A stretch of DNA of 64,000 bases from Candidatus Bathyarchaeota archaeon (lineage in GTDB: Archaea > Thermoproteota > Bathyarchaeia > Bathyarchaeales > Bathycorpusculaceae): positions 288,001 through 352,000 of the forward strand of contig CAVTBV010000012.1 in NCBI GenBank assembly GCA_963733095.1, given 5' to 3'. A program made the position numbers and the translations under genes. Positions 8,743-64,000 of the stretch are shown piece by piece. How positions within the stretch are numbered: position 1 is the first letter of the stretch; each line of letters starts with the position of its first letter. Below the pieces are notes generated by a model that was not told the origin of the DNA, did not search any database, and saw nothing but the letters and a program-made list of their open reading frames with translations.

Positions 8743-9351
8743 TCATTTTTGAGATAACAATCTTTCCGCAAGCTGGAGTTCTGACACCGTGTTTATGTTC
8801 ACGGCCAATTCCTCGTTGTTCATGAGGAATATGTCTTGGTCGAGCCATTCGTCACCATACCGTTTGTGTCCGTCGATAACGTTGATCCCTACTGGAACGA
8901 CGTCTTTGTTGTCGGCTTTGAATGAGTATTCGATACACATACCCAACTTTGCTTTGGTTTCAAGCGGAACCGCAACGGTTAGGGCAGGTTTGCCGCATTG
9001 CTCGTAACGTTCCACGACGGCATCTATCATTTTGCCCGTCACCAAGGGTAAGTCAGCTGCGACCGCTAAGAAAACGCCTAGCTTGAGCGTTTGAACGGCG
9101 TAGCCCATGTCGGAAACATAGTCTTTGCCCGGAGTTTCAAGATATTTGACCCTGAGATGTTTCATGAGTTGGGTTGTATTGGGTGTACAACTGGATGTTG
9201 CAACGATTACTGAATCGATTTTTTTGGCTTGCTTGAGCGCAGCGAGCACGTATTCAATGACGTGTTTGCCGCAAACCTTTATGAGCGGTTTTTCCTCGGC
9301 GATTTTCATGCGAGTTCCTTTGCCGCCAGCCATAACAAGCGCAACTATCAT
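8743..9351 (-). CDS. cobY: Adenosylcobinamide-phosphate guanylyltransferase CobY (copy 1)
   Basis: MAGGKGTRM...EKPL NTP-transferase motif, PVGIN, NINT. Start placed at the ATG at 9351, overlapping the cobS stop. Confidence 0.85.
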   Translation of the reverse strand: MIVALVMAGGKGTRMKIAEEKPLIKVCGKHVIEYVLAALKQAKKIDSVIVATSSCTPNTTQLMKHLRVKYLETPGKDYVSDMGYAVQTLKLGVFLAVAADLPLVTGKMIDAVVERYEQCGKPALTVAVPLETKAKLGMCIEYSFKADNKDVVPVGINVIDGHKRYGDEWLDQDIFLMNNEELAVNINTVSELQLAERLLSQK

Positions 9352-10124
9352 CAAATCACCGCCAACAAAACAATAACACAAACCATCCGCGTCAACTCGT
9401 TAGTAGCACCAAAAACGTCCCCTGTAACTCCGTTGAAGTGCTTGTGGGCAACCCCAACCATAACTAAACCAGTTATTACTGCTGATAGAATGGTAAAGAC
9501 ACCTGCCCAACCCAGCAGTGGAAAAGCAATCAACACTGAAAGCACCAACGCTAAAACCAAACGCATTTTACCTATACTTCCATGCATAGCTTCAAGAAAC
9601 GATGAGTTCATGCCTTGATGGACGGATTTGCCTGCCCAAGCAGCTACCACCATTGACAGCTTTGCACACAACTCAACAACAATTAAAGCGGGAAAAATCA
9701 GGGGAACCGCGAAATTCAAAATAAATATGTGCCTTCCGAGTTCAGCGAAAGCAAACGCCGTAATTAGGTAAGTCATTACGGATAAGCCGATGGCTCCTGC
9801 ACCCGTTAACTGGTCATGCATGACCTCAATTTTATGTTCAGATGATCCATGCACCATGACGCCGTCACCGAAATCCAAAAGCCCGTCTGTATGATGTAGC
9901 CCAGTCATTAACAATAACAGAGCCAAAGCCAAAGCGCCGACCACAAGACCTGGCAAAAACTCAAGAACCACCCAGCTGAACGAACCTGCCAACAAACCGA
10001 GAAAAGCGCCGAGTAATGGGAAAGCCCACATGTTTCGGGCGCAGTCAGTAAGCAGGTCTTTGTCCATAGCAACTGGAAAAACGGTTAAGAAGGATAGGAG
10101 GTTCTTTAGTTCTTTAACAGCCAA
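9351..10124 (-). CDS. cobS: Cobamide synthase CobS (copy 1, canonical)
   Basis: GLHHTDGLLDFGDG, VMHD..G and GVTGDVFGATNE motifs; polytopic membrane protein. Confidence 0.92.
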   Translation of the reverse strand: MAVKELKNLLSFLTVFPVAMDKDLLTDCARNMWAFPLLGAFLGLLAGSFSWVVLEFLPGLVVGALALALLLLMTGLHHTDGLLDFGDGVMVHGSSEHKIEVMHDQLTGAGAIGLSVMTYLITAFAFAELGRHIFILNFAVPLIFPALIVVELCAKLSMVVAAWAGKSVHQGMNSSFLEAMHGSIGKMRLVLALVLSVLIAFPLLGWAGVFTILSAVITGLVMVGVAHKHFNGVTGDVFGATNELTRMVCVIVLLAVI

Positions 10125-10131
10125 GCGCGTG

Positions 10132-11220
10132 TCACTTTATGCCCATCAGTAGAGCATAGTTACGCTCTATTTCCTTAAGAAGTATATCCTTGGTGATTGC
10201 GCTGCCTGTCTTGGCCATCGCTGCGATTGATGCACCGCCAGCGCCAACACCTTCCTTGACCAAGCCTGTTTCGTAGATTTGAAGGCCTGGATACTTTGAG
10301 GGACCAAAATCCAAGTCGGCTGCTAAAACTGGCACTTCACAGAACTGTTTTGCGATGCCACAGATGTCTGAGTTCTTGTCTTTTACAACCCACCTTGTGG
10401 TGCCAACAGCTACGTTACAGAGCGATTTGGGAGCCAAAGCGCTAATTATTGCTAAAACCGCGGTCATCTGGGTGCCGCCAGCCATCAGAACAGGTCCCTG
10501 TCTTGCGCCGCCTATGACTAATCCAGCCATCGCCGCCATCATGGGGTCGCCAACACAGGAAACTGCTTTTAGAGGGTTGTTTTTTAGGCTGCCGAATTTT
10601 TCTTTTGCCGCCTTCAAACCTGCCTCAACCACTTCTGCCTTGAGGCTATGGGGGTTTTGGGGCAGGGTGCTGCTGACTTTTCCCTGCGCATCCACACCTA
10701 ACGCTGAGAGAACGCCAAGCGCAGTTGTAGTTCCGCCTGGAATACTCTCGCCGATAACCAAATAATCAGACGCTTTCGCGAGTTGTTCGCCTAAAATCTT
10801 AGCGCGCTCCACGACTTCTTCGACGTTGTCAACTGAGTCGCCGCTTCGGATGTCTCTGCCGGAGCTGCCGCCTAAATCCACATAAGGAATCTGCGGCTTA
10901 ACCTTCACACCTCCATTAACCACCAACACTGGGATGTCACCTAAATGCAACGCCGACATCGTGATTAAGCCAGGTGTCGGAATCCCATCAGGGGTAATTG
11001 GGACACCTGCTATAGATTTGCATTTACCAAGCAAAAGCAGCTCCGCATCTGCAGGAGGCGTAAAATCTGTAAAATCCGGGTTCATCCCGGCGGCAGATAA
11101 ACCGGGGATTTTCGCCGTTTCTGTAGTTGCAATGGTGCAGAGGAATAGGGGTTTTTTGCCTTCGATTTCGTCTAAAAAGGCTTTTGCTTTAAGTTCATTA
11201 TTCGCAATCAGGACATCCAT
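10132..11220 (-). CDS. cobT: Archaeal-type nicotinate-nucleotide:lower-ligand phosphoribosyltransferase CobT
   Basis: TETAKIPGLSAAG, GESIPGGTTTA, GDPMM, AGGTQM and VKEGVGAGG motifs. Confidence 0.9.
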   Translation of the reverse strand: MDVLIANNELKAKAFLDEIEGKKPLFLCTIATTETAKIPGLSAAGMNPDFTDFTPPADAELLLLGKCKSIAGVPITPDGIPTPGLITMSALHLGDIPVLVVNGGVKVKPQIPYVDLGGSSGRDIRSGDSVDNVEEVVERAKILGEQLAKASDYLVIGESIPGGTTTALGVLSALGVDAQGKVSSTLPQNPHSLKAEVVEAGLKAAKEKFGSLKNNPLKAVSCVGDPMMAAMAGLVIGGARQGPVLMAGGTQMTAVLAIISALAPKSLCNVAVGTTRWVVKDKNSDICGIAKQFCEVPVLAADLDFGPSKYPGLQIYETGLVKEGVGAGGASIAAMAKTGSAITKDILLKEIERNYALLMGIK

Positions 11221-11231: not shown

Positions 11232-11903
11232 TTACTTGGGCACAACTTTGAATTCCTTAATCTCTAAGTACCCAAAGCCGCCGTCAAGCTTAAGTCTCTG
11301 TGATTCAACAATTTCAACCTTTTTCTTGAAACCTGGCCCATCAGTTATGACTGTATGATATTCACCGCCTTCTCCGCAAGCATCTACATTGCCAAGTTTT
11401 AGGATATCGTCGTAGAATTGCCTATCGAGTACGCGTCCAAGCCAATCCACGCCAAGCAGTTCCAATTTGGTGCGGACTACAGTGGCTTTGAAGCCTGTTT
11501 TGAGGTAGTCGAGATAGATTTGTTTTGTGTCGCCCATCCACAGTGGCTTGACGGGTGTTAAGCCAACTTCTTTGCAGATGCGTCCAAGCCAACCTTCTTC
11601 ATGCCCAGCGACTTCATAGATGTCGCCAGTAACTAAGCCTTCCGCGCCTCGGGACTTGCACTCATAGAGCACGGCTTTGAAGTCGTTCTCGTAGGTCTGG
11701 GGGGATGTGGGTTTTTTTATCAGGGGAATCCCGATAGCTTCAGCTTGTGCGTCTAGGATGCCTGAGGGTATCATATGGAAGTTTGATTTGGTTTCGCTCA
11801 TCATCATAGTTAACAGGTTGATTACTTGGTGGCCTTGCTGGGTGGCCAGGTAGAATGCGTAGGCGCTGTCTTTGCCCCCACTCCATGAAGCAATAACTTT
11901 CAT
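11232..11903 (-). CDS. DUF71/Dph6-like ATP pyrophosphatase (diphthine-ammonia ligase family), copy 1
   Basis: SWSGGKDS PP-loop, TGDI, PLW and DACGEGGEYHT; first gene of the cobT-cobS-cobY operon. Confidence 0.85.
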   Translation of the reverse strand: MKVIASWSGGKDSAYAFYLATQQGHQVINLLTMMMSETKSNFHMIPSGILDAQAEAIGIPLIKKPTSPQTYENDFKAVLYECKSRGAEGLVTGDIYEVAGHEEGWLGRICKEVGLTPVKPLWMGDTKQIYLDYLKTGFKATVVRTKLELLGVDWLGRVLDRQFYDDILKLGNVDACGEGGEYHTVITDGPGFKKKVEIVESQRLKLDGGFGYLEIKEFKVVPK

Positions 11904-12196: not shown

Positions 12197-12694
12197 ATGA
12201 GGTTAAAACCCATGACAAACCAAACCTCACCAATGTTAACTTACCTCGAAGGCAAAGGCATCACCCTAAAAAGCCTCATCGACAGCGCCCTCGAAATGTA
12301 TGTTCCCCACCCGGGCGTAGAAAACTTTGAAAAAGCAACACAAATGCTCAAAGAAGAATTCCTCGATATACTCACAGACGTCAACGTTAACACGCTCATT
12401 GTTGCCGCTTTCCATGCTCAGGAAGAAGCTGAGAACGGTCGGATTCCAGGCTTAACGAAGGAGAGGTTTTTGGGCAGACCCGGATTGGTTGCAGATGAAC
12501 TCATCGGCATAGCCATAGCAACATACATCGGAGGTTCCAAGGGTATGTTTGAGTTTGTACGGTTTGATCAAACAAAACCAGGCATCCTAAAGGAGTTGCC
12601 GCCGCTCACTAATGATGCAATCGGCGCGTTGGTAGCGGGTGCATCCTCGAATGTCTATACCAGAGCCCTGAAAAGTGCAGGCCTTCCACCGTAG
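12197..12694 (+). CDS. cobZ: Alpha-ribazole phosphatase CobZ (PgpA-like, archaeal)
   Basis: DVNV..LI.AA, LVADELIG.AIA.YIGG.KG.FEFVRFD..KPGIL..L motifs; divergent from the cob operon. The true start may be slightly downstream. Confidence 0.8.
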   Translation: MRLKPMTNQTSPMLTYLEGKGITLKSLIDSALEMYVPHPGVENFEKATQMLKEEFLDILTDVNVNTLIVAAFHAQEEAENGRIPGLTKERFLGRPGLVADELIGIAIATYIGGSKGMFEFVRFDQTKPGILKELPPLTNDAIGALVAGASSNVYTRALKSAGLPP

Positions 12695-12805: not shown

Positions 12806-13963
12806 ATGGTTCAAACTCAGCTCTGCATTGTTACACACACTTTTCTGCCGCATGTAGGCGGGATAGAGAAGGTGGTTAATGAACAAAGCAAGCGGCTGCG
12901 AACAAAAAACTTTGAGCCCACGGTAGTTACTAACAGGATAGGCACTCCCAAAAACTACAAGGTTGACGGGGTACCCGTCGAATGCTATGAATCCCTCAAC
13001 ACTGGCTTTAGGCTGGGAATTCCATATTCGATTCCAACTATTGCAAGTTTTCCAACTTTTATTAAAACAGTAAACAAGAGCAAAATAATCCACGCACACG
13101 GACACCCCTACCTAACCTCGCTCATCGCGGGTAAACTTGCCAAAATTTACGCTAAACCCTTGGTTTTAACCCAGCATAACACCTTCATCGAGTACAACAA
13201 CATGTTTGACACAGTCGAAAACTTGAACGACTTCACCGTTGGAAAACAAAACCTAAAAAACGCCGACAAAATAATCGCCATCAGCAACGCTACAAAAGAG
13301 TATGTTCTAAGGCTAGGTGCAAAACCAAAGAAGATAAGAGTTGTCTACAACGGTGTTGATTTGGTTAGGTTTCGACCCATAGCGGGAAAACGTGAGGAAA
13401 TGCAAAAAAAACTCGGAATCCCCAAAAACGCCATCGTCGTGTTGACTGTGCGACGGTTGGTTTACAAGAACGGTATTGACACATTAATCGACAGTGCGAA
13501 CATTGTGATTAAAAAGAATCGGCGGATTGTGTTTTTGGCTGTTGGGAAAGGTCCTGATTCGGACGATGTCAAGTTGAGGATACAGCAGTTGGGGATTGAC
13601 GGAAACTTCAAGCTCGCAGGCTTTGTCAGTGATGAGGATTTGCCGTTCTACTACAACGCGGCGGACTTGTTTGTGTTGCCTTCTAAGTCGGGTGAAGGGT
13701 TGCCTTTGGTCGCGATGGAAGCCATGGCATGTGGGCTACCGGTTGTCGCTACAGATGTGGGGGGAATACGAGAAGTGTTGATAAATGATTACGGAAAACT
13801 GGTGCCGCCCAACCAGCCAGAGCTGCTTGCAAGGGCAATTTTGGATTTTGCAGCGCTTGATTTTTCTTCACGCAAAAAAGACCTCCGTGCTATGATGGAA
13901 GAAAAGTTTAGTTGGGACACAAATGTTGCGAGACTTGTGGAAATATACGAAGAACTTATTTAA
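12806..13963 (+). CDS. Glycosyltransferase family 4
   Basis: PHVGGIE, VYNGVD and EGLPLVAMEAMACGLPVV (EX7E). Confidence 0.92.
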   Translation: MVQTQLCIVTHTFLPHVGGIEKVVNEQSKRLRTKNFEPTVVTNRIGTPKNYKVDGVPVECYESLNTGFRLGIPYSIPTIASFPTFIKTVNKSKIIHAHGHPYLTSLIAGKLAKIYAKPLVLTQHNTFIEYNNMFDTVENLNDFTVGKQNLKNADKIIAISNATKEYVLRLGAKPKKIRVVYNGVDLVRFRPIAGKREEMQKKLGIPKNAIVVLTVRRLVYKNGIDTLIDSANIVIKKNRRIVFLAVGKGPDSDDVKLRIQQLGIDGNFKLAGFVSDEDLPFYYNAADLFVLPSKSGEGLPLVAMEAMACGLPVVATDVGGIREVLINDYGKLVPPNQPELLARAILDFAALDFSSRKKDLRAMMEEKFSWDTNVARLVEIYEELI

Positions 13964-14007: not shown

Positions 14008-14742
14008 ATGACGTCAAAAGTTGAAATGGTTTCGGTGGTAATTCCAACACTCAATGAAGCAGGAAACATTCAGGAAGCAATAGAAACCATCCAAAGCGAC
14101 CTTACCTATCCTAAAGAAATCATAGTTGTGGACGGTAATTCTACGGACGGGACCAAAGAAATCGTTCAGTCCCTGGGCTATTGCAGGCTTATCGTGGAGC
14201 CTCGCCGCGGGTACGGTTTAGCTTTGATGACTGGGATGAAGAACGCTAAGGGTAACATCATCATAATGGTGGATGGAGACGGCACATACGAGTTTCGTCA
14301 CATGAATCGCTTAATAGATGCCATGCTTGAAAAAAACGCTGACATGGTTTTAGCCACCCGCATGTACGACCCCAACAAAGCCATGGGACTCATGAACTTT
14401 ATCGGCAACAAAGTAATCACAACCTTCTACGATTTCTTCTTTAGCCAATTCCTCAGCGACACCCAATCAGGTTTCCGAGCTATATCCCATGAAGCCATCA
14501 ACAAGGTGGAACTCAAAGCATACGACATGGCTTACGCAACAGAGATGCTTATCCAATTCGCCAAGGAAGGCTACAGCATGATTGAGGTTCCCACAACCTA
14601 CAAAACCCGTAAGTATGGGAAACCTAAACTGAGAAGATTTAAGTCTGGAATAGAGATATTTAGCACTATGTTTAGAGGATTTCTGGATGCGGATACGTTT
14701 AGAAAGTGCCAGGAGAATTGGAAGCAAAATCGGGTTAAATGA
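14008..14742 (+). CDS. Glycosyltransferase family 2, DPM1-like (polyprenol-phosphate glycosyltransferase)
   Basis: VVIPTLNE, VVDGNSTDGT, DGDGTY and DTQSGFRA. Confidence 0.9.
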   Translation: MTSKVEMVSVVIPTLNEAGNIQEAIETIQSDLTYPKEIIVVDGNSTDGTKEIVQSLGYCRLIVEPRRGYGLALMTGMKNAKGNIIIMVDGDGTYEFRHMNRLIDAMLEKNADMVLATRMYDPNKAMGLMNFIGNKVITTFYDFFFSQFLSDTQSGFRAISHEAINKVELKAYDMAYATEMLIQFAKEGYSMIEVPTTYKTRKYGKPKLRRFKSGIEIFSTMFRGFLDADTFRKCQENWKQNRVK

Positions 14743-15208
14743 AGAAAAAGGCTATGCAGTCGCCATTTTTCTTGCTTTAATCATCGTTTCCGCGACAGTC
14801 TTAGGCTACTATTTTGTGCTAAGGCCACAGGCTGCACCCTACAATACCATCTATCTGTTGGACGCTGACAAAAAAGCTGTGGATTATCCGCAAACTTTAG
14901 TAGCGAACCAAAACAGTACTTTTAGCGTATATGTCGATGTAGAAAACCACATGACTACAACCGCAAGCTATCAAGTGCAAGTAAAAATTGCACAGAACCT
15001 CTCCACTTTCCCAGTGGATAATCAACCCATTCAAATCATAGAAACAGGCAATGTTAACAACAACGGAAAACCAATAGAAAAAACAGCAACTATCACAATA
15101 AACACGCTTGGAAGCTACTCTGTGGTCTTTGAACTCTGGCAACATAAAGACGGCACCCTCGAGTTCACTCAAGACTACTGCGTTCTAAACATTCAAGTGA
15201 TAAGCTAA
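14687..15208 (+). CDS. DUF1616-like membrane-anchored protein
   Basis: Single TM helix then a beta-rich domain with IYLL...DYP, VENH and VVFELW. Start uncertain because of the 56-nt overlap with the GT2. Confidence 0.65.
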   Translation: MRIRLESARRIGSKIGLNEEKGYAVAIFLALIIVSATVLGYYFVLRPQAAPYNTIYLLDADKKAVDYPQTLVANQNSTFSVYVDVENHMTTTASYQVQVKIAQNLSTFPVDNQPIQIIETGNVNNNGKPIEKTATITINTLGSYSVVFELWQHKDGTLEFTQDYCVLNIQVIS

Positions 15209-15295: not shown

Positions 15296-16765
15296 TTAGG
15301 ATGGCTTTTTGTGTCTTTGCGCATAAGCTTTCTCGATGGCTACTCGGTGGACGTTGTTATAGGCGCAGAACGGAATAATCTTGAGGTCTGGCGTAATATA
15401 ATGAACGACGCATCGGCGGACGCGGTTAACGTCGAAATTATAGGAATCCATGAATGCCATGCAACCCAACAAGAAGATTCTTCTTCGGATTTTGCCCAGC
15501 GACTGGTAAGAAGGCGCAAGATGCATACGCATAATTGACTTCATCAGAGTTGGCATGCCAACTTCTTTGGTAACCAGTAACATATCCATTGAAAGCATTG
15601 AAGCCATAAACAGCGATGAGAGAAGAGACATTTTGCCCTTAGATTCAGCTGTTTCGGCGGTTTTGCGGATGCTGTTGAAGAAGCGGTCAAAGTTTACGAA
15701 GCGGTTGATTGGGAACATTTTGCCGCTCTTGGAAACGTACACCCAGTTGACGATTCCGCATTGGGGACTGCAGGAGAAGAGGGGCCAGGGTTTCTGCATA
15801 AACTTACGCATGATTTTAATCGGCGAAGTCATCACGGACATGGGATATAGGTCAGTGGCTTTTACTTCACCGTTTGTTTGTTTTTCCACATCTTCGGCAA
15901 AGCTCCATTCGCGGAAGTTTTCTCGGAATGGGTTCTCGGTTGCTCTGCCCGTGAAGGCGATGGGTTGGAAGATTAAGCCGCGAACGATGTCAGTGTTTTT
16001 GGCGGCGAAATGTATCATGTCGCCGACTTCTGTGTCGTTGAGGCTTTTCATGAGGGTATTGACAAGGATGATTTCCATGTCGTATTTGCGGCAAACATCG
16101 ATTGCTTTGAGTTTCATATCTAAGAGTTCTCGTCCTCTAACTTTGCGGTTGAACTCTTCATGGAAACTGTCGAAGGACAAGTAAACGATGTTTAAGCCGC
16201 TGTCTTTGAGCCTCTTTGCTAAACCTGGTGTGTCAACGAGATGTGTCCCATTGGTTGCCAGAATAGTCATGAACTTTAATTGATGAGCAGCCGCGATGAT
16301 TTCTGGCATGTCCTCGCGTTCAAGGGGTTCGCCGCCCGAGAAAAGAATTGCAGGAGGTTTGGGGTTTGCTTTGGCTGCGAACTCTAGCATTTTTATGAGG
16401 GCTTCTTTGGTGGGTTCATAGTCTGCTTCTTGATTTGGAAAAGTGCTAAAGCAAACGGCACATTTGAAGTTACAGCGCTTAGTTACGTCGATTACGCCGA
16501 TGACTGTGCCAGATGCGTGTTTGTCGCAGGTTTCACATTTGTAGGGGCACCCTTCGGGGTTTTTGGGTGCAGTTAAGTCGCCAAGGTATTGGAACTGGTC
16601 GTACTTTTGCATGTGGTTGTAGATTGGTACGCTTTGCCAGTGGGTAGCATGGAATTCGCCGTGTTCAGGGCACTGCTTGCTTATTTGGATTTTACCGTTG
16701 GACTGGGCTAGTTGGGCGTCGATTTTCTTTTGGCATTCAGGGCAGATGCTTTTGGTTTCGCTCAT
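15296..16765 (-). CDS. tes: Tetraether lipid synthase Tes (MJ0619/GDGT-MAS family radical SAM)
   Basis: N-terminal CPEC...CPEHG, auxiliary CPYKCETCDKH, radical SAM CNFKCAVC, SGGEP, FSCSPQCG, and C-terminal CMAFMDSYNFDVNRVRRCVVHY...IIPFCAYN. Start at 16765 overlaps the UbiA stop (ATGA). Confidence 0.82.
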   Translation of the reverse strand: MSETKSICPECQKKIDAQLAQSNGKIQISKQCPEHGEFHATHWQSVPIYNHMQKYDQFQYLGDLTAPKNPEGCPYKCETCDKHASGTVIGVIDVTKRCNFKCAVCFSTFPNQEADYEPTKEALIKMLEFAAKANPKPPAILFSGGEPLEREDMPEIIAAAHQLKFMTILATNGTHLVDTPGLAKRLKDSGLNIVYLSFDSFHEEFNRKVRGRELLDMKLKAIDVCRKYDMEIILVNTLMKSLNDTEVGDMIHFAAKNTDIVRGLIFQPIAFTGRATENPFRENFREWSFAEDVEKQTNGEVKATDLYPMSVMTSPIKIMRKFMQKPWPLFSCSPQCGIVNWVYVSKSGKMFPINRFVNFDRFFNSIRKTAETAESKGKMSLLSSLFMASMLSMDMLLVTKEVGMPTLMKSIMRMHLAPSYQSLGKIRRRIFLLGCMAFMDSYNFDVNRVRRCVVHYITPDLKIIPFCAYNNVHRVAIEKAYAQRHKKPS

Positions 16766-17673
16766 ATTAACCATCCAAGGACAGCCTCAACGATGAGTGC
16801 AAGCGGCAACAGCATCATTGACATCGTTACCAAGCGTTCATACTTGCGTATATCTGCTATGGTTGAACTTGAAACGAATAACCGTATGGACGAGTAAATT
16901 AGCAGTACGCTCCAGAGTAGAATTAGCGGCAAGTAATAAAGTGTGAAATGCCCGGTGAATAAGGGAAGAGCAGGCAATGGCGCAAGCAATCCTGTGAGAA
17001 AGAAGAATATGCCACCAATTTTCGCTGCGCTAATCGCGCCGATTTTTTGGGGCAGTGTTGGGTAACCGACTTTTGAGTCGCCCTCCATGCTTAAAACGTC
17101 GCGGAGAACGTTGCCTCCTATGGTTCCGAGCGCGATTGGGTAGAGACTCAGGGAAACTAGAGTTATTGTGCCTGAAACGGTTGCTTGACCAAATATGAAA
17201 GCTGTACCAGTCAAGATGCCCATCAACAGGTTAGCTGCAAACCCTGACTTGCGTTTCACCATGTAAGAGTAAACCAAAAGCAGAAAGGAGTCCACAGCGA
17301 TTATGGCAAAACTCAACCAATTTATGAAAGCTGCCAAAAGCAAGCCTGATGCAAAGAGTGCACTGGTAACTGCAATGACTTGCTTCAATGTGAGGGCGCC
17401 TGATGGAATAGGTCGTTTGGGTTTGATGATTGCATCGCTTTCGCGGTCAAAATAATCATTTATGGCAAACCCTGCGGACGCGATTAACGCCATAGAAAAG
17501 AAGGTCAATAACTCCACAATCCCAAAGCCCAGACTGCCTATTGTGGTTTGTATGCTTGAAAAGTTGCCTTTTAGGATGGCGAATGCCGTTAGCACTGCCA
17601 AACCGCCGGTCATTAGCCAGTAGGGAAGCCGCAGCAGAGCAACTAAGGCTCTAGCTGACCTGGCAGAACTCAT
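16762..17673 (-). CDS. UbiA prenyltransferase, digeranylgeranylglyceryl-phosphate synthase-like
   Basis: INDYFDRESDAIIKPKRPIPSG first Asp-rich motif. The second motif is altered (NVLRDVLSMEGD). Many TM helices. Confidence 0.82.
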   Translation of the reverse strand: MSSARSARALVALLRLPYWLMTGGLAVLTAFAILKGNFSSIQTTIGSLGFGIVELLTFFSMALIASAGFAINDYFDRESDAIIKPKRPIPSGALTLKQVIAVTSALFASGLLLAAFINWLSFAIIAVDSFLLLVYSYMVKRKSGFAANLLMGILTGTAFIFGQATVSGTITLVSLSLYPIALGTIGGNVLRDVLSMEGDSKVGYPTLPQKIGAISAAKIGGIFFFLTGLLAPLPALPLFTGHFTLYYLPLILLWSVLLIYSSIRLFVSSSTIADIRKYERLVTMSMMLLPLALIVEAVLGWLI

Positions 17674-50310: not shown

Positions 50311-50368
50311 ACCCAAATCTTGCCGTTCGCGCAAGTTTTATAATAACCGTTCGGGTTCCTATTAAGGT

Positions 50369-54115: not shown

Positions 54116-54197
54116 GTCAGATTGTATAACGCTTATATGCTGGCATGTTTATCCCTCATCAAACAGTTTCAGACGGGACTTTGGATGTTGATTTAGC

Positions 54198-54944: not shown

Positions 54945-54994
54945 AAAAGCACAATATAGAATTCAAATCCAAATACCCTTTTTTGGACATTAAT

Positions 54995-55317
54995 GAGAAC
55001 AGGAACAGCATTTTCTGGAAAAAGTTTTGTTTTTCTTCTTTCAAAAAATGCCCACGTTAACCTTTGCGGGGATTGCTCAACAAGAGAAGAAGAAGCGCCC
55101 CTGAAGCAACCTTCTTCTTCGCTTCAATGTCTTCAAGGTTGAAAGAACAACAACACGCGAATTTTTTCAACTGTTGTTGTTCTCCCATCAAGTAAATGTC
55201 CCTATTAACTGGAAGAAGAAGAAATGCCGAATTTTTTCAATATTCTTCTTCTTTCAACTTCAATTCAAGCCAAAGAACAAGAGCAAAATTTTTCTAAACA
55301 AAAACCTGTTGTTGTCC
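54995..55317. repeat. Array of palindromic units with triplet (AAG/AAC) arms
   Basis: Perfect inverted repeats at 55086-55120, 55144-55183 and 55213-55253, plus two degenerate flanking units. The loop core CGAATTTTTTCAA is repeated. Confidence 0.75.
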
Positions 55318-55411
55318 CAAAGCATTCTGCCAATAAGTTGCAGCTAAAACAAGTTGGAGTTCTATAGCAATGTTGATAAGGCAACCCTACGCCTAAAACA
55401 TACAGCTGGAG

Positions 55412-55726
55412 TTGAACCAAACGTCCCAACAAAAACAAGTCGTCGGCAACTTAACCTTAAACATCGTTTGGCTCTGCGGAGGAAAAACCGCCGACATAAC
55501 TCCAGCACCCCAACTAAAGTTTAGCATGGATCAGGCTTGCGAGAAAATTAAGAAGCAGAAGATGAAGGTTCGGGTGAAGGCTCCGATGCTTCTGATTTTT
55601 GATTATATGAAGATGGAGGTAAGCCTCTTTGATGGGGGGCGTATGTTGATAAAGAATGTGACGAACAGCAAGCTGCCTATTGATGCGTTTGTAGAAGTTT
55701 GTAGAGCCATAGAAGTGCCGATATAA
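55412..55726 (+). CDS. Small hypothetical protein resembling the C-terminal domain of ThiF/MoeB-family proteins
   Basis: WLCGGKTADITP and EVSLFDGGRMLIKNV pattern; TTG start with GGAG upstream. Confidence 0.55.
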   Translation: MNQTSQQKQVVGNLTLNIVWLCGGKTADITPAPQLKFSMDQACEKIKKQKMKVRVKAPMLLIFDYMKMEVSLFDGGRMLIKNVTNSKLPIDAFVEVCRAIEVPI

Positions 55727-55739
55727 AAAATCGATTTTT

Positions 55740-57107
55740 CTAACGACGGAAAATTATTTTGGCACTTTTCTTAGCTGCACTTGCCAACCCTTCCTGCCTA
55801 ATAACACGAACCAACTTTGACGCCGACGACTTCTGAAAGCTCTTTTGGTATTCTCTTTGGATTTTGACGAGCATTTCATAGTCGAAGTCTTTGGTTTTAA
55901 CTCTTGCCAAGTAGTTGTCCATTTGGTCATAGAGATGCTCTTTTATTACTTCATCGTAGAGTTCGCTGCCTGGGCAAGCGATGTAGATGTTGAACATGCA
56001 AACGTCAGCTTCTAAGCGCTTTGCGTAGTTGAAGGTGGATTGCATATCCTCAACTGTTTCACCTGGGATACCTAGCATAAAGGAGGTGGCGGTTTTGATT
56101 CCGACTTGGCGGCACAAATCGAAGGTGCGTTCGACTTCTTGCAGGTCGATGTTTTTGCCGAGTTTCTGCTGAATCCGCGGCGACCCCGATTCGGTACCGA
56201 AAAAGATGGTTTGGCACCCCGCAGACTTCATTTCCATTAGCAGTTCTTTGTTGACTAGGTCTGCTCGGGTTTCGCAGGTCCATTTGATGTCGAGTTTATT
56301 TTCTTTGATTAGGCGACAGAGTTCGGAGGCGCGGTTTTTGTTTATGGTAAAGTTGTCGCCGACAAAGTAAATGCCCTTAGTGCCATAATTCTCCATCATG
56401 TGTTTGATTTCATCTATTACTCGTTGCGGGGAGAAGGCACGACAGGCGGTTCCCCAAAGCTCGCGGGTTTCGCAGTAGGCACATTGGTATGGGCAGCCTC
56501 GAAGGACGCTCATGGTGTCGACGGGTTTGACGTCTATGTAGGGGAGGACGCGGTCGTACATTTTCATGGGAAGCATGTGGCGTGCGGGGAAGGGAACAGT
56601 GTCTAAATCAGTGATAAATTCGGGGGCGGTTTGGGCTATTTCGCCGTTGATTTTCAAGGCTACTCCCGGAATCTTGGCTATAACGCTGTCGGTCTCGCCT
56701 TTGAGGATGCTTGCGGCAAGTTTGACAATCGCCGTTTCCCCCTCGCCAATAACCACATAATCAATCTCGTTATGCTGGAGCATGGTTTCAGGCATGTATG
56801 AAGGATGTGGACCGCCCACCACCACCTTGCATGTTGGACACGCTTCTTTGGTTGCCTTAGCAGTCTCGATGCATCGACTGTAAGTTAAGCTACTGCAGGT
56901 TATGCCGACAATTTTGGGTTGGCGCTTTTTAATTTCCGCTTTCACTTCTTCGATGGGGCGCTCAATGAGATAATTGTCGTAAATCTCAACTTGGTAACCG
57001 CTCTTCTCCAGAGCCGCTGCAACGTATGCTAAGCCCAGTGGGGGAAGCTTTCCCGCCATGCCCCAGGGCGATTTTTCTGGGGGAGCGGTGGTCAAAAGTA
57101 GAATCAA
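55740..57107 (-). CDS. Cobalamin-binding radical SAM protein #5
   Basis: TTAPPE, PPLGLAYVAA, GGPHPS, GEGE, RGCPYQCAYC and GTESG; close paralog of #1. Confidence 0.9.
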   Translation of the reverse strand: MILLLTTAPPEKSPWGMAGKLPPLGLAYVAAALEKSGYQVEIYDNYLIERPIEEVKAEIKKRQPKIVGITCSSLTYSRCIETAKATKEACPTCKVVVGGPHPSYMPETMLQHNEIDYVVIGEGETAIVKLAASILKGETDSVIAKIPGVALKINGEIAQTAPEFITDLDTVPFPARHMLPMKMYDRVLPYIDVKPVDTMSVLRGCPYQCAYCETRELWGTACRAFSPQRVIDEIKHMMENYGTKGIYFVGDNFTINKNRASELCRLIKENKLDIKWTCETRADLVNKELLMEMKSAGCQTIFFGTESGSPRIQQKLGKNIDLQEVERTFDLCRQVGIKTATSFMLGIPGETVEDMQSTFNYAKRLEADVCMFNIYIACPGSELYDEVIKEHLYDQMDNYLARVKTKDFDYEMLVKIQREYQKSFQKSSASKLVRVIRQEGLASAAKKSAKIIFRR

Positions 57108-57130: not shown

Positions 57131-58543
57131 CTATTTTGTGGGGCTGCTTATTTTAGCCATGAGCGCTCTTCGAAAGTGTGCCATTATGAGCCGAGTTGCG
57201 CCCAGTCCCCACATTTTTCCCTTCTTAAACATACCGATTGCGCTGATGAAGTACCTGGGACTGAGGTAGAAGCTTTGGAAGGCTTCTTCGCGTATCTGAC
57301 TAAGCTCCTGCATGGTCATATTGGCGATTTCGAAGGTTGGGGTAGCGGTGTCGTACTTGTCAAAGTCAGTTATTCTTAGTGAACCGTTGGCTTTGACTTC
57401 TTCGTACATGGGTGTGCCTGGATAGGGCGTGGCAATATAGAAGCCGACATCGTTAGGATTAAGCTCCTTCACAAATCGAATAGTTTCCCAAGCCGTGTCT
57501 TTGGTTTCACCTGGAAAACCCAAAATCACACCAGCAACCGTCATCAACCCTGCTTCTTTTGCCCACTTAAAGGCACGTCTTGTCTGTGTAAGCGAGAAGC
57601 CCTTACCCATACTTGTTAACTGTTTCAAAGAACCCGATTCCACACCAAACCAGACCGCGATGCAGCCCGCTTCACGCATCTTGACAAGGAGTTCTTTGCT
57701 GACCATATCCACGCGGGTTTCGCAGTCCCATTTGATTTTGAGTCCTCGGCAGTGAATTTCGTCGCAGATTTCCGCCGTTCGAGCTTGATCCACTGTAAAG
57801 GCATCGTCGTAGAAGGTGAATTGGTTGGCGCGGTAGTTTTTGTGGAGGTATTCCAGTTCGTCGACAACGTTTGTGGGTGTGCGCATGCGGTATCTTCTGC
57901 CAAACATTCTCACAGCCGTACAGAAGTTGCACCAGAACACACAGCCCCTGCTGGTCATAACTGGGTAGGGGATGGTTCCGTATTTTCGGAGTTCACCCAG
58001 CTTTTCCCAAAGGTGCAGAGCGGGAAATGGGAGGCTGTCGAGATCTTCTAGAAAAGCTCTGTCCGCGTTCCTAACTATTTCACTGCCTTTCCTGCAAGTG
58101 GCACCCTCAAGGTCAAAAAGTGGTTGGTGGTTTTCGACTCTTTGCGCAAGCTCCAACATTGTTTCTTCGCCCTCTCTTCTTATAACGATGTCTAAGGAGG
58201 GTTCTTCTTGCAGTGCCTTGTCATCCCAGAACGTAACATGCGGACCGCCAATAGCGGTTATGCAGTTTGGCAAGGCTTCTTTGGCGGCTTTTACAATTTT
58301 GAGGGCAGACTTGTATGTGAGTGTTGTGCATGTGACGCCGACTATGTCGGGTTTTGATTTAGCAATTTCCTCTTTGAACTGTTGGTGACTGATTTTTTGG
58401 GCTTGACAATCAATCACTTTAACTTCAAAATGATTCTTGAACAATACCGCACCTAGGTATCCTATGCCTAAAGGCATGAAGGGTGGATGCTGATGTGAAC
58501 CTGCAGGGTAGGGCGGATTGACAAGAGTTATGCGAGTTTTCAT
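57131..58543 (-). CDS. Cobalamin-binding radical SAM protein #6
   Basis: NPPYP, PLGIGYL, GGPHVTFWDDKAL, RGCVFWCNFC, GVESG and TPYPGT; close paralog of #2. Confidence 0.9.
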   Translation of the reverse strand: MKTRITLVNPPYPAGSHQHPPFMPLGIGYLGAVLFKNHFEVKVIDCQAQKISHQQFKEEIAKSKPDIVGVTCTTLTYKSALKIVKAAKEALPNCITAIGGPHVTFWDDKALQEEPSLDIVIRREGEETMLELAQRVENHQPLFDLEGATCRKGSEIVRNADRAFLEDLDSLPFPALHLWEKLGELRKYGTIPYPVMTSRGCVFWCNFCTAVRMFGRRYRMRTPTNVVDELEYLHKNYRANQFTFYDDAFTVDQARTAEICDEIHCRGLKIKWDCETRVDMVSKELLVKMREAGCIAVWFGVESGSLKQLTSMGKGFSLTQTRRAFKWAKEAGLMTVAGVILGFPGETKDTAWETIRFVKELNPNDVGFYIATPYPGTPMYEEVKANGSLRITDFDKYDTATPTFEIANMTMQELSQIREEAFQSFYLSPRYFISAIGMFKKGKMWGLGATRLIMAHFRRALMAKISSPTK

Positions 58544-58660: not shown

Positions 58661-59368
58661 CTATCGCGGGGCTTGTTTTGGCTGCAAGGAGCATTCTTTG
58701 ATGTCCATGTAGAGCCAGTTGCGTTTCCAATTCTTTGCTTTTTCTTTCTTCTTTTTGGTTTTGTACTTGCCGATTACGATGGATTCCTTGAACAGCGGCG
58801 CTTCAACTACGGTACTGTGGTATCCTTGTCCATCTTCGCTAGATACATCAATACCTTTTGAGTCGGTAAATTCTTTGAGTTCCTTGATGGATTCGGGGTC
58901 AAGCTTTCGCCCCAACCATTCTTCACCAAAAAAGTTTGTGTTGACACAGTTTAGGACAGGTCTCAAGCCAGTGCCAACGACTTCTTTGAGCACATCGTAT
59001 GTGTCGCCTTCGTTGGGCATTAAAAAAGCAAGTCCCAGCTGTTTAGCCATACTCTCATAGTAGCTTGAGTGAACTATTGCGCATCCTGCTCCAGCGATAT
59101 CGCCTGTAACAATGCCCTCGATGCCCTGCGACTGTTTCAGTTTGGTCAAGGCACCAAGTATGTCTTCGTAGGCTTTCTTTATCCTAACAACCTTAAGTGG
59201 GACTCCAAGGGTTTTGGATTGAAGCTCCATAACATCGAAACTGTGAAAAACGTAAGGTCTCTGATATTCAAAGCTGAGAAGGCAGGCAACTTGATGCCCC
59301 TGCGCTATGACTTTGTGGTAAGCTAAACAGCATTCTTTGCCCCCACTCCAATGAACAACAACCTTCAT
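58661..59368 (-). CDS. DUF71/Dph6-like ATP pyrophosphatase, copy 3 (degenerate motifs)
   Basis: HWSGGKECC, TGDI, WLGR and SSEDGQGYHS. Confidence 0.78.
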   Translation of the reverse strand: MKVVVHWSGGKECCLAYHKVIAQGHQVACLLSFEYQRPYVFHSFDVMELQSKTLGVPLKVVRIKKAYEDILGALTKLKQSQGIEGIVTGDIAGAGCAIVHSSYYESMAKQLGLAFLMPNEGDTYDVLKEVVGTGLRPVLNCVNTNFFGEEWLGRKLDPESIKELKEFTDSKGIDVSSEDGQGYHSTVVEAPLFKESIVIGKYKTKKKKEKAKNWKRNWLYMDIKECSLQPKQAPR

Positions 59369-62239: not shown

Positions 62240-63319
62240 TTGACAAATAAGAAAGGTCCTTTACTTATGACTTCTTGGCGAGCAACAGGCGCCTGCAACG
62301 CCCGGTGCCTTTACTGCAACGTTGACGCGACAGGTAAGCATGCTCCAAGAGAAATGACAACCCAAGAAGCATTCCATCTGGTTGATGAAGTTAGTGATTT
62401 TGGCGTTAGGTGGTTTGGCATAAAAGGCGGGGAACCCTTAACACGTCCCGACATCTTTGAAATTGTCACATATGCCAAAAACAAAGGTCTAAACGTTTGC
62501 TTACTCACAAACGGAGTCTTTGTTGACGGATCAATTTACGATAATTTGGTGAAAAATCAGGTTTGGACATCCGTTAGCATCGATGGACCAGAAGAAATCA
62601 ACGACCAACTACGCGGAAAAGGCTCCTACAAAAAAGCCCTCGCCGCCATCGAAAAATTATCAAAGGGTAAGATCCTCAACGGCTTAGCCTGCGCCATAAC
62701 AACCATAAACTACCAGCACCTCGACCATGTTGCAGAGTTAGCTGACAAATACCACGCTAACTTTGTCTGGTACAACCACTTAGTGCCCAGCGGACGAGCA
62801 AAGGCAACCATGGATTTAACACCCACACCAGAACAGTACGAATGGGTGCTCAACCACATCTGGGATATAACACAAAAGTACAGGGGCAAATTTGAGGTTC
62901 ACGTTCACTGCCCACACTTTGCGCGGGTAGTGAAGCAGAGAATCCCCGAAAAAGAGTTTAACGAATGGTACGAAAAAGAATTCCACGGCAAATGCACCTA
63001 CTTCGCATTCGGCGGCTACCTCAGCGTAACCGAAAACGGCGACTTAATCCCATGCTTCTACACCGACCTGCAACCCTCCGAGCCCATGATGCTAGGCAAC
63101 ATTCGCAACAAAAGCTTAACCACAGCGTGGGAAGAAATCAAAGCCTCAAAATACTACAACAAATTCCAAGACCGAAACATCCTCAAAGGCAAATGCGGAG
63201 TCTGCGAATACAAAGACATCTGCGGCGGATGTAGAAACCGAGCATTCGCATACACAGGCGACATCACAGAGTCCGACCCTGCATGCGCCTATATACCGGA
63301 GAGTCTCCGCAAAAAGTAA
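62240..63319 (+). CDS. Radical SAM/SPASM protein (NirJ/PqqE-like)
   Basis: CNARCLYC, GGEP, SIDG, PC and CGVC...CGGCRNRA...DP.C. Confidence 0.9.
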   Translation: MTNKKGPLLMTSWRATGACNARCLYCNVDATGKHAPREMTTQEAFHLVDEVSDFGVRWFGIKGGEPLTRPDIFEIVTYAKNKGLNVCLLTNGVFVDGSIYDNLVKNQVWTSVSIDGPEEINDQLRGKGSYKKALAAIEKLSKGKILNGLACAITTINYQHLDHVAELADKYHANFVWYNHLVPSGRAKATMDLTPTPEQYEWVLNHIWDITQKYRGKFEVHVHCPHFARVVKQRIPEKEFNEWYEKEFHGKCTYFAFGGYLSVTENGDLIPCFYTDLQPSEPMMLGNIRNKSLTTAWEEIKASKYYNKFQDRNILKGKCGVCEYKDICGGCRNRAFAYTGDITESDPACAYIPESLRKK

Positions 63320-63336
63320 CAGTTGCAGGTATAGTG

Positions 63337-64000
63337 ATGAGTGTAATTAAAACAAAAGTAGCATTGGTAACCACTCCACTCTTGCAGAAACGGGGTAACC
63401 ACCCGCTTTTTCCACCCTTGGGCCTAGCGTATATGGCAGCTGTTTTAGAGCAGAACGGTTTTGAAGTAAAAATATTCGATTGCCCGGCATGCGAACTCGA
63501 CCATGATAAACTCAAAGCCGAATTATCCAACTATCAACCCACGATGGTCGGCATCGGCTCCATGACACCTACAATTGAGTCAGCACTCAAATCTGCCCGC
63601 GTAACAAAAGAAGCCTGCCCAGACGCCAAGGTTTTGATGGGTGGACCCCATGCAACTTTTGCTGGCGAAGAAATCCTCGCATCCGAAAAAGCTGTAGATA
63701 TAATTGTGAGGGGAGAGGGTGAGGAGACAATCGTAGAATTAGCCAAACAACTCCCTGTAGGCGACATCGGAGGTATAACCTTCCGAAAGGATAACCAAAT
63801 AATCCAAACAGCGAACAGACCCTACATCCAAGACCTCGACGCACTTCCGTTGCCTGCCTACAAGCTTCTTCCAATGGACAAATACAACATAACAGGAAGA
63901 AACCTGCTTTCAGTAATAAGTAGCAGAGGATGCCCCTACCAATGTCCCTTCTGCGTAGCTTCACAAATGTTCGGTGCTCCTTTCAGGGCAAGAAATCCCA
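63337..64000 (+). CDS. Cobalamin-binding radical SAM protein #7 (runs off the window)
   Basis: Manual translation MSVIKTKVALVTTP...FPPLGLAYMAA...GGPHATF...GEGE...SRGCPYQCPFC. Not in the ORF track. Confidence 0.9.
   Translation, partial: MSVIKTKVALVTTPLLQKRGNHPLFPPLGLAYMAAVLEQNGFEVKIFDCPACELDHDKLKAELSNYQPTMVGIGSMTPTIESALKSARVTKEACPDAKVLMGGPHATFAGEEILASEKAVDIIVRGEGEETIVELAKQLPVGDIGGITFRKDNQIIQTANRPYIQDLDALPLPAYKLLPMDKYNITGRNLLSVISSRGCPYQCPFCVASQMFGAPFRARNP

Follow-up and report, generated by a model that had tools for sequence, protein, structure and literature searches.

Diverged tetraether and cobamide paralogues form a conserved gene cluster with seven B12-binding radical SAM genes in a wetland Bathyarchaeon

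In one stretch of a Bathyarchaeial genome, seven genes for B12-binding radical S-adenosylmethionine (SAM) enzymes lie among genes for the late steps of cobamide synthesis, a homologue of the tetraether enzyme Tes, and five glycosyltransferases (GTs). The locus raises the question of whether these genes form one system and what such a system would make. The stretch, called the window here, is the 64,000 nucleotides at positions 288001-352000 of contig C12 (CAVTBV010000012.1) in assembly GCA_963733095.1, which has 2.84 Mb in 16 contigs, is 95% complete, and belongs to a Bathy-6-type Bathyarchaeon from wetland soil. The genes in question, together with two SPASM enzymes, occupy positions 8743-64000 of the window (Table 1), and Pfam and NCBIfam matches add an SDR epimerase, a methyltransferase, an AKR-ferredoxin fusion, and a DUF362 gene. 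A preliminary description had listed ten radical SAM genes (seven B12-binding with an intact CxxxCxxC motif, two SPASM, one Tes), interleaved late cobamide genes (cobD, cbiB, cobY, cobT, cobZ, and cobS), five GTs, an epimerase, a methyltransferase, and redox helpers. This inventory is borne out by scans of 54 window frames against Pfam and 41 of these against NCBIfam and by a motif check, and a second cobS/cobY-like pair is added to it.

The genes are one conserved unit that is inherited together, not a chance neighborhood. The most economical account takes the region as a single biosynthetic cluster, conserved and put together in large part from second copies of genes in two housekeeping pathways. 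What is new here is that the window's Tes, UbiA, cobD, and cbiB genes, one of its cobS/cobY pairs, and its three Dph6-like genes are, judged against the other copies in the genome, diverged second copies. As for the product, we give an even chance to a reading in which the cluster builds and tailors a special tetraether-type glycolipid, probably membrane-spanning, whose substrates we infer throughout.

The B12-binding radical SAM genes, denoted R1 to R7, are strongly concentrated. A scan with the BzaD model finds 13 such frames in the genome, and seven lie inside the window, which holds 2.3% of the DNA (binomial P = 4.5e-9 for 7 of 13 frames within 64 kb of 2.84 Mb). All seven match PF02310 (50.6-93.5 bits) and carry CxxxCxxC, and the six complete genes also match PF04055; R7 matches only PF02310 in the window because the gene runs off the window end. 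The enzymes, old paralogues of one another, share 31-60% identity, with R1 and R5 at 53%, R4 and R7 about 40% identical to R2 and R6, and R3 apart. A FastTree phylogeny of the 13 frames and six from other Bathyarchaeia (four adjoining SPASM1-family genes), midpoint-rooted without an outgroup and with deep supports of 0.80-0.94, gives three in-genome groups: R2, R6, and a frame at C12:390k with R4 and R7; R1 with R5; and R3 with a frame at C9:50k. The B12 clade that partners SPASM1 is not reliably placed in this tree. By a crude hydropathy scan, which underlies all transmembrane (TM)-like stretches given here, R1, R5, and R6 have none, one such stretch lies close to the N-terminus of R2, R4, and R7, and one lies internally in R3 and R4. 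A profile search of the PDB with the R3 alignment gave weak matches only (AprD4 95.5 bits, 9ccb 64.4, OxsB 48.3, TokK 42, CysS 29.1) and no functional lead.

Gene order around R3 was compared by tblastn of the window proteins against 79 loci holding R3 orthologues (57-91% identity), with matches below 50% query coverage dropped. Most of these loci belong to Bathyarchaeota or Bathyarchaeia metagenome-assembled genomes (MAGs) of fen, bog, palsa, peat, and soil, and a few carry other labels. The preliminary description had pointed out that cobD and cbiB each sit directly upstream of a co-oriented B12 radical SAM gene, and the gaps are indeed 276 bp from cobD' to R1 and 52 bp from cbiB' to R3. The second of these pairings is widespread: a co-oriented cbiB' ends at most 400 bp upstream of R3 in 63 of the 74 loci with at least 1.1 kb of upstream DNA (five of the 79 being set aside), and it persists even with differing flanks, for example in three loci. 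In many relatives R2 lies directly upstream of cbiB', giving the order R2-cbiB'-R3, and a tandem Lrp/AsnC regulator precedes R2. Other recurrent neighbors are R4, the amidohydrolase, the group of Dph6-like c, R1, and the methyltransferase, and the group of an 845-amino-acid (aa) propeller protein, SPASM2, and R7. The amidohydrolase stays beside cbiB' and R3, between R3 and R4 in most R3 loci, and the propeller-SPASM2 group, with or without R7, is likewise kept in most of them; this group is kept, and the amidohydrolase present, in three genomes denoted G115, G123, and G162 as well. R1 recurs in many R3-centered loci with the AKR-ferredoxin gene, the methyltransferase, or both, and the block R4, Dph6-like b, 104-aa open reading frame (ORF), R5, R6, and Dph6-like c is kept in eight. 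Four contigs with Bathyarchaeial gene order are labeled as Limnocylindrales, Actinomycetes, Acidoferrum, and Methanocella MAGs and are probably mis-binned.

The rest of the cluster is held together by pairs and trios of its own. The trio Tes', UbiA', and epimerase is kept in all six loci fetched around Tes', and in the window cobS2 diverges from the epimerase across 39 bp. The group GT4a, GT2a, and DUF1616 adjoins Tes' in five loci, and the overlapping pair of a small membrane ORF and cobD' is kept in eight, a ninth having cobD' without the ORF. The operon of Dph6-like a, cobT, cobS1, and cobY1 is present likewise in four loci. A second synteny set was the DNA fetched from six genomes. In G162 a single 27.8 kb contig reads Tes', UbiA', epimerase, cobS2, cobY2, SPASM1, DUF362, GT4b, GT2b, GT2c, the membrane ORF, and cobD', and continues with R5, R6, R3, cbiB', amidohydrolase, R4, propeller, SPASM2, and R7. 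In G115 and G123, which belong to another family and share 40-60% protein identity, two blocks are kept within about 45 kb: B12 enzymes, cbiB', amidohydrolase, and SPASM2 stand beside SPASM1, GT4b, GT2b, GT2c, the membrane ORF, cobD', cobY2, cobS2, Tes', UbiA', epimerase, DUF1616, and GT4a. The order GT4b-GT2b-GT2c is kept in these three genomes and in a fourth, G111. The arrangement recurs in relatives of two families.

Co-inheritance was followed in an even sample of 151 genomes of the class, the source genome included. cbiB' (at least 56% identity; next best cbiB 45% identical) is present in 15 genomes. The identical 15 genomes carry the R3 orthologue (E ≤ 1e-100) and Tes' (at least 470 bits; next best 377 bits), and 14 of them carry cobS2 (at least 147 bits), with fragments of cobS2 in the fifteenth, which is itself fragmented. 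At these thresholds all four genes are absent from the other 136 genomes. The 15 make up 12 of the 16 genomes of one family, f1, counting the source genome (11 of 15 without it), and three of the five of a second, f7; four f1 genera and one f7 genus are without the whole set. The four f1 genomes without it are 94-100% complete and have no cbiB whatever. Within the cluster genomes Tes' and cobS2 lie no more than 3.5 kb apart in 14 of 15. CbiD, a marker of de novo corrin synthesis, occurs in 13 of the 151 genomes, 12 of them cluster genomes, and matches to the BchE model number from 6 to at least 9 in all 15, a count of 6 being reached by five of the 136 others (median 1). Given that the cluster genomes are kin, these counts overstate independence, and a few joint gains or losses suffice to explain them.

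The second answer to the question lies in what the conserved genes are. In-genome copies were compared by local tblastn and NCBIfam scores. Tes' just passes the cut-off of 450 bits on NF045702 and scores 318 bits on the TrsS model, below that model's cut-off of 490; its two CxxxCxxC motifs lie at residue 101 (CNFKCAVC) and residue 76. The other Tes of the genome, on contig C1, scores 668.4 bits on the Tes model and shares 37% identity with Tes'. Tes copies in 80 other genomes of the class are solely of a type 35-41% identical to Tes'. By these values Tes' is a diverged second copy, not the orthologue of the Tes that other Bathyarchaeia carry.

The cobamide genes repeat the pattern. Contig C13 carries cbiB and cobD side by side, and both outscore the window copies: 330.9 and 286.9 bits for cbiB against 266.7 and 233.7 for cbiB', and 303.7 bits for cobD against 282.6 for cobD'. 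Identity to the C13 copies is 39% for cbiB' and 35% (34.6%) for cobD'. The window contains both cobS/cobY pairs, which share 36-37% identity. A midpoint-rooted maximum-likelihood tree built from 28 CbiB sequences puts cbiB' in a clade with support 100/100 on a stem of 0.91, and the C13 type groups with the single-copy cbiB of other Bathyarchaeia, all 20 of which are closer to the C13 copy than to cbiB'. All 14 single-copy cobS genes fetched from other Bathyarchaeia are likewise closer to cobS1 than to cobS2. Scores, identities, and tree together identify cobD', cbiB', cobS2, and cobY2 as diverged paralogues, a shadow set of the cobamide-loop genes. By the hydropathy scan cbiB', cobS2, and UbiA' encode polytopic membrane proteins. 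A complex prediction for the products of cbiB' and R3, from alignments of 23 rows each, returned a score of 0.00 without a verdict and is not used as evidence.

Where, then, do the B12 enzymes obtain their cofactor? Contig C2 holds a full anaerobic corrin pathway (hemA, hemB, hemC, hemD, hemL, cobA, a cbiX-cbiC fusion, cbiD, cbiE, cbiT, cbiL, cbiF, cbiG, cbiH, and a cbiA-type amidase), so the organism is a de novo producer of corrinoids. The window has the genome's only cobT and cobZ and the better-scoring cobS1 and cobY1, and no corrin-ring gene is found among its 54 scanned frames, as had been stated before. The earlier proposal that the region finishes or salvages a cobamide stands in part: cobT, cobZ, cobS1, and cobY1 are finishing genes, but the region is not a mere finisher or salvager, as the complete corrin pathway lies on C2 and the better-scoring cbiB and cobD copies on C13. 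Its companion claim, that the cobamide feeds a set of lipid- or glycan-tailoring enzymes, likewise divides. The conserved unit with Tes', UbiA', the GTs, and a SPASM enzyme whose domain order resembles that of the lipid cross-linker Gms favors such a set, but cobD', cbiB', cobS2, and cobY2 are diverged paralogues that may no longer supply a cobamide.

The 95% complete genome yielded no cobyric acid synthase (CobQ/CbiP): the top match, to the cbiA-type gene, reaches 51 bits where the cut-off is 310. Dph6 enzymes amidate carboxylates using ATP and ammonia. The best Dph6 copy of the genome lies elsewhere on C12 (277.6 bits), and the three Dph6-like genes of the window score 102-138 bits at 28-34% identity. 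Dph6-like a heads the cobT-cobS1-cobY1 operon, and Dph6-like b and c flank B12 radical SAM genes. Given this chemistry, the window paralogues are candidates for the missing corrin amidations. A cobyrinic acid a,c-diamide synthase-like protein of 538 aa at C2:105004-106620 (L086:13004-14620; NF004921, 502 bits) has a swapped domain order by the CobQ/CobB models, with the amidotransferase part N-terminal (residues 34-233) and the ATPase part C-terminal (275-502).

Known tetraether enzymes offer the closest comparison for the rest of the cluster. GrsA/B, Gmm, Cgm, Pgm, and the Bathyarchaeal Ted are, in the portions of the literature available, described as B12 radical SAM enzymes that act on tetraethers. 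The accessible part of PMC11214058 describes GrsA/B and Gmm as such enzymes and Gms as a SPASM enzyme, with gms and gmm frequently clustered, and places 307 of 990 Gmm homologues in Bathyarchaeota, mostly as several non-canonical "Gmm2" copies per genome. According to the available part of 10.1101/2025.10.20.683597, Ted desaturates tetraethers; butanetriol tetraethers appear in that part solely as backbone-methylated lipids, with no enzyme named. Bacterial gms is described, again in partial sources, as clustering with tes or mss. The present cluster likewise joins a Tes-family gene, a SPASM enzyme with N-terminal helices, and several B12 radical SAM genes. It differs in that its Tes is a diverged second copy with its own UbiA paralogue, in having seven B12 paralogues, not one or two, and in adding five GTs and a second cobamide-loop set. 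The AttH/CrtC hydratase family, sought as a sign of a Ted/Hgs-type pair, was not found in the genome.

SPASM1 invites comparison with Gms. In the accessible part of PMC11186832, Gms is made up of an N-terminal domain of six helices, a radical SAM domain, a bridging region, and a SPASM domain. The AlphaFold model of SPASM1, though weak (mean pLDDT 59.9), suggests this published order, with six helices in residues 7-105 followed by the radical SAM core and the SPASM domain. In a protein atlas SPASM1 falls solely among unnamed archaeal radical SAM/SPASM clusters. Full-length relatives occur in 67 of the 151 class genomes, at 54-81% identity within the 15 cluster genomes and 36-48% elsewhere. Outside the cluster genomes, three of 56 SPASM1-family places abut the genome's single Tes, which is 54-56% identical to the C1 copy. 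In at least four genomes without the cluster, a SPASM1 relative lies beside a B12 radical SAM gene whose product is 36-42% identical to R2, R4, R6, and R7.

Two pathways outside the archaea resemble the combination as well. In hopanoid side-chain synthesis, hpnI encodes a GT2, hpnK a deacetylase, hpnJ a B12 radical SAM enzyme, and hpnP and hpnR B12 methylases. As in that system (hpnI, hpnK, hpnJ, hpnP, hpnR), where a membrane isoprenoid is glycosylated and then remodeled or methylated by B12 radical SAM enzymes, the cluster has GT2 genes and an amidohydrolase, and HpnJ is the first or second named match of R2, R3, R4, and R6 (183-224 bits). However, the scores are far below the cut-offs (HpnJ 577.6, HpnR 650), the lipids of this archaeon are ether lipids, and hopanoid genes are absent. 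The moenomycin phosphoglycolipid cluster brings together a prenyl-ether lipid, multiple GTs, an epimerase for sugars, a methylase of the B12 radical SAM type, and amidation of carboxylates at the expense of ATP. A comparable combination of prenyl-ether lipid, GTs, epimerase, B12 radical SAM, and ATP-dependent amidation would be present in the cluster described here, but moenomycin is a bacterial antibiotic made with only one B12 enzyme and without Tes or cobamide-loop paralogues. That methylase, MoeK5, is described in the accessible part of PMC11214058 as similar to Gmm.

For the cobamide genes the reference is archaeal loop assembly (CobD, CbiB, CobY, CobS, CobT, and CobZ, with CbiZ for salvage). 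All family models are matched, cobS and cobY show their usual pairing, and cobT, cobS1, and cbiB' exceed curated cut-offs. The difference is a duplication of cobD, cbiB, cobS, and cobY, whose second copies form a diverged lineage of their own among lipid and glycosylation genes. The nearest published genomes are the Bathy-6 MAGs of PMC11697101 (ISME Commun 2024), for which the part available reports 7-20 genes for B12 radical SAM enzymes per MAG, numerous membrane proteins with PQQ domains, and a B12 pathway located at three loci. The source genome shares these traits; that part of the paper frames them in terms of lignin metabolism and does not describe the conserved cluster, the Tes/UbiA/cob paralogy, or the co-inheritance. 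A literature search that did not reach supplementary trees found in print neither a second Bathyarchaeial Tes nor a set of cobamide-loop paralogues beside lipid genes.

Taken together, a glycolipid pathway could run as follows. UbiA' and Tes' would make an isoprenoid ether core, probably membrane-spanning and distinct from the bulk lipid of the other Tes. The epimerase and five GTs would add a sugar head or glycan. Unactivated carbons, in the chains or in the head, would be methylated, cross-linked, closed into rings, or desaturated by SPASM1 and the seven B12 radical SAM paralogues. For their cofactor these enzymes would depend on corrin synthesis by the C2 genes and on cobT, cobZ, cobS1, and cobY1 at the cluster edge. 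The second loop set, made up of cobD', cbiB', cobY2, and cobS2, genuinely belongs to the cluster, and may provide dedicated cobamide-finishing capacity or may have its amide and phosphodiester chemistry redirected to the lipid head.

A lipid or glycan substrate for the seven B12 enzymes is what we infer from gene content and conservation, and several observations weigh against it. None of the seven exceeds the curated NCBIfam cut-off of a named class-B subfamily (BchE, HpnJ, HpnR, BzaD, PhpK/Sden_1168, the MCR glutamine methylase, ladderane TIGR04072, or ApyD); the best scores against cut-offs are BchE 246.8/481, HpnJ 223.7/578, Sden_1168 207.8/575, TIGR04072 174.8/360, and BzaD 150.5/450. BchE is the top named match for five of the seven, that of R2 being HpnJ and that of R3 the P-methyltransferase family. 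In the SPASM1 model pLDDT is 44 for residues 1-10, 70-89 for the blocks from residue 11, and below 50 past residue 330, including the SPASM part, and the best named NCBIfam matches of SPASM1 are AhbD (304.8 bits), NirJ2 (283), and NirJ (243), all below cut-offs. The three adjacencies of SPASM1 relatives with Tes all fall in one family (f26), and the seven SPASM1-family places that were fetched had been picked for close coordinates before tblastn confirmed adjacency. The kinship of the 15 genomes means that co-occurrence may partly reflect linkage in a lineage-specific island. A lignin role for B12 radical SAM enzymes is the proposal of the authors of the Bathy-6 genomes, in the accessible part of PMC11697101.

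With AhbD and NirJ as the best matches of SPASM1 and BchE as that of five B12 enzymes, a corrinoid product would fit these matches too. The cluster might then make a variant corrinoid or modified tetrapyrrole, with the second loop set attaching an alternative tail, AhbD/NirJ-like and BchE-like enzymes remodeling or methylating ring side chains, and UbiA' perhaps prenylating the product in the manner of chlorophyll and heme O synthases. Each of the four loop steps has a duplicate, and cbiB' forms a separate long-stem clade, as a changed substrate predicts; a B12 radical SAM gene follows cbiB' in most loci, UbiA' has a secondary match to chlorophyll synthase (85.7 bits), and the cluster tracks de novo corrin synthesis. 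Yet all these matches reach about half of the curated cut-offs, UbiA' scores higher on DGGGP synthase, cobT and cobZ are unduplicated, and the tightest linkage of cobS2/cobY2 is with Tes', UbiA', and the epimerase. Moreover, Tes', the five GTs, and the epimerase are not known to act in any tetrapyrrole pathway. A variant corrinoid is judged unlikely. Also quite unlikely, in our view, is a function of the radical SAM enzymes in lignin or methoxy-aromatic metabolism, or in maturing the surface proteins with PQQ-like propellers. Such a role would suit the gene counts and lignocellulose habitats of the Bathy-6 MAGs (available part of PMC11697101), the constancy with which the 845-aa propeller, SPASM2, and R7 stay together, and the five large propeller proteins in the window with four more in the next 20 kb. 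It leaves Tes', UbiA', the GTs, and the second loop set unexplained; moreover, three of the seven B12 enzymes lack a TM-like stretch by the crude scan, the propeller family of about 0.9 kaa (thousand amino acids) is found at 31 further places across the genome, and the compact G162 cluster has no propeller save the 845-aa member.

There may also be no common product, the region being a lineage-specific island of duplicated genes that are linked only, with B12 consumers near B12 genes by co-regulation at most. The kinship of the 15 genomes, their reshuffled gene order between genera, the presence of parts on separate contigs in two genera, and the admixture of housekeeping cobT, cobZ, cobS1, and cobY1 would all be expected of an island. 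Against this stand the retention of the same set at 40-60% protein identity across two families and its loss as a whole in five genera, the compact 28 kb form, and the tight pairs that survive rearrangement (cbiB' followed by a B12 enzyme, the membrane ORF overlapping cobD', and Tes'-UbiA'-epimerase facing cobS2-cobY2), which make an island equally improbable with a lignin or propeller role. Finally, some of the B12 radical SAM genes could be BzaD/BzaE-type methylases for a benzimidazole lower ligand, as homologues were annotated for Bathy-6; BzaCDE homologues at a B12 locus are mentioned in the accessible part of PMC11697101, the genes adjoin cobamide genes, and the BzaD model gives 102-150 bits for the six complete enzymes and, for R7, 50 bits for the window part and 136 for the full frame. 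The best BzaD score of the genome, 149.9 bits, is set against a cut-off of 450, and the ThiC/BzaA/BzaF family (PF01964) has no match in the 95% complete genome. A BzaD/BzaE identity was rejected on these two grounds and is regarded as highly improbable.

Within the preferred reading of a tailored glycolipid, the part played by the second loop set deserves separate treatment. The duplication of the full loop, the long stem of cbiB', and the linkage of cobS2 and cobY2 to Tes', UbiA', and the epimerase fit a changed substrate. The good family scores of the set, and the fact that only corrin-making lineages have it, agree with a role still in cobamide synthesis. A bridge of carboxamide, amino alcohol, phosphate, and sugar occurs in the cobamide tail and in eukaryotic GPI anchors. 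It is conceivable, although rather doubtful, that the set has been repurposed from B12 finishing to build such a bridge on a glycosylated tetraether, with the B12 radical SAM paralogues tailoring the product. CobD' would supply an amino-alcohol phosphate, CbiB' would form the amide bond to a carboxylate, CobY2 would activate with GMP, and CobS2 would make the phosphodiester to a sugar hydroxyl. Such a product could serve as an archaeal head group of a new kind, or as a lipid anchor holding a carboxylate-bearing partner at the membrane, be it a sugar acid, a corrinoid, or the C-terminus of a protein.

Table 1. Features of the window, with positions counted from its first nucleotide
Feature	Position	Strand	Match or remark
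cobY1	8743-9381	-	CobY-type, 153.3 bits (cut-off 174.7)
cobS1	9351-10124	-	156.1 bits (cut-off 110)
cobT, archaeal, single copy	10132-11220	-	396.8 bits (cut-off 240)
Dph6-like a	11232-11903	-	Dph6 model 137.7 bits (cut-off 197.3)
cobZ, alpha-ribazole phosphatase, single copy	12197-12694	+	TIGR03161, 139.4 bits (cut-off 152.5)
GT4a	12806-13963	+	
GT2a	14008-14742	+	AglJ/dolichyl-phosphate-hexose-transferase-like, matches below cut-off
DUF1616 protein	14687-15208	+	one TM-like stretch
Tes'	15296-16774	-	PF04055 85.3 bits; HMPTM zinc ribbon PF23545 58.4 bits; NF045702 465.1 bits
UbiA', DGGGP-synthase-like prenyltransferase	16762-17673	-	DGGGPS model 148.8 bits (cut-off 296)
SDR epimerase/dehydratase	17670-18614	-	
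cobS2	18654-19487	+	107.7 bits (just below cut-off 110)
cobY2	19484-20107	+	129.5 bits (cut-off 174.7)
PQQ-like beta-propeller protein, 429 aa	20156-21445	-	Pfam; not core
SPASM1 radical SAM	21619-23046	+	PF04055, PF13186; N-terminal Cys4 and helical domain
DUF362 protein	23030-24001	+	
GT4b	23998-25194	-	best match a GT family named for radical SAM company, below cut-off
GT2b	25195-26184	-	three C-terminal TM-like stretches
GT2c	26188-26886	-	AglJ-like/dolichyl-phosphate hexose transferase-like, matches below cut-off
Small membrane protein	26970-27524	+	three TM-like stretches; overlaps cobD' start
cobD'	27508-28626	+	282.6 bits (cut-off 290.55)
R1	28903-30348	+	PF02310, PF04055, CxxxCxxC
AKR-ferredoxin fusion	30361-31446	+	Pfam/NCBIfam; after R1
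SAM methyltransferase	31457-32269	-	Pfam/NCBIfam
Two surface proteins, 982 and 1019 aa	32398-38638	-	PQQ-like propeller; Ig-like domain in the 1019-aa one; not core
R2	38735-40120	+	PF02310, PF04055, CxxxCxxC; 60% identical to R6
PQQ/Ig surface protein	40239-42959	-	Pfam, hydropathy
Two-domain Lrp/AsnC regulator	43164-44213	+	
Small helix-turn-helix membrane protein	44231-44686	-	
PQQ/Ig surface protein	44787-47501	-	Pfam, hydropathy
cbiB'	47805-48809	+	233.7 bits (cut-off 165.9)
R3	48862-50310	+	PF02310, PF04055, CxxxCxxC; 52 bp after cbiB'
Amidohydrolase, single copy	50937-52481	-	PF07969
R4	52574-54115	+	PF02310, PF04055, CxxxCxxC
Dph6-like b	54198-54944	+	
104-aa ORF	55412-55726	+	
R5	55740-57107	-	PF02310, PF04055, CxxxCxxC
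R6	57131-58543	-	PF02310, PF04055, CxxxCxxC
Dph6-like c	58661-59368	-	
Multi-propeller protein, 845 aa	59472-62009	-	
SPASM2 radical SAM	62240-63319	+	Pfam
R7	63283-63999 in window; genomic end 64737 (window coordinates)	+	484 aa; PF02310; CxxxCxxC still inside window

The propeller proteins of 0.9-1.0 kaa that lie between cluster genes are mostly filler. Both their ends carry hydrophobic stretches, an Ig-like domain is matched as well by three of the four window members, and a 904-aa copy used as query finds 32 places in the genome, itself included, at 50% coverage or more. Compact forms of the cluster do without them and retain the 845-aa protein. The 429-aa propeller is without a match between cobY2 and SPASM1 in G162 or G111; G111 has 2 kb there without any match to a window protein. 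The 845-aa propeller and SPASM2 form a divergent pair across two families, often followed by a second propeller gene and R7, and may be a maturase and its target.

Other genes lie near or beyond the cluster. Just upstream, positions 5217-7676 of the window encode a CbiQ-type T component and two ATPases of the ECF/CbiO type; an S component was not seen. ECF/CbiO-CbiQ genes directly adjoin cbiB'-R3 in one locus (L058). A protein of 429 aa encoded at 1985-3274, with an N-terminal TM-like stretch, is without a family match and recurs at 11 other places of the genome (32-49% identity). Rfam gives no match in the whole window, neither a riboswitch nor another known RNA family. Among public sequencing runs, positions 47805-57107 were traced to seven DNA data sets and to no RNA data set. 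On contig C9, a regulator similar to the Lrp/AsnC protein (L087:5993-6931) and the B12 radical SAM gene of that contig are about 1.2 kb apart. Downstream of the window are the four further large propeller proteins, a HemN-like radical SAM gene, one more radical SAM gene, rnfC, rnfD, cbiZ, a SAM synthetase, and an eighth B12 radical SAM gene. The synthetase, at C12:372550-373728 (L002:1550-2728), about 20 kb past the window end in a stretch rich in radical SAM genes, is the sole one detected and is of the bacterial MetK type; an archaeal-type AdoMet synthase (PF01941) was not detected in the genome.

Bathyarchaeia are among the most abundant archaea of sediments and peat. The cluster described here is defined and conserved, comprises about 20 genes, and is open to testing in the expression hosts that have served for Tes, Gms, Gmm, and Ted; orphan tetraether biomarkers of peat may find their explanation in it. 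It also contains a duplicate of each of the four membrane-proximal steps by which the cobamide tail is assembled, embedded among lipid and glycan genes. The second loop set would either form a cofactor line dedicated to radical SAM enzymes or put its chemistry to a new use, and either would be new to cobamide biology.

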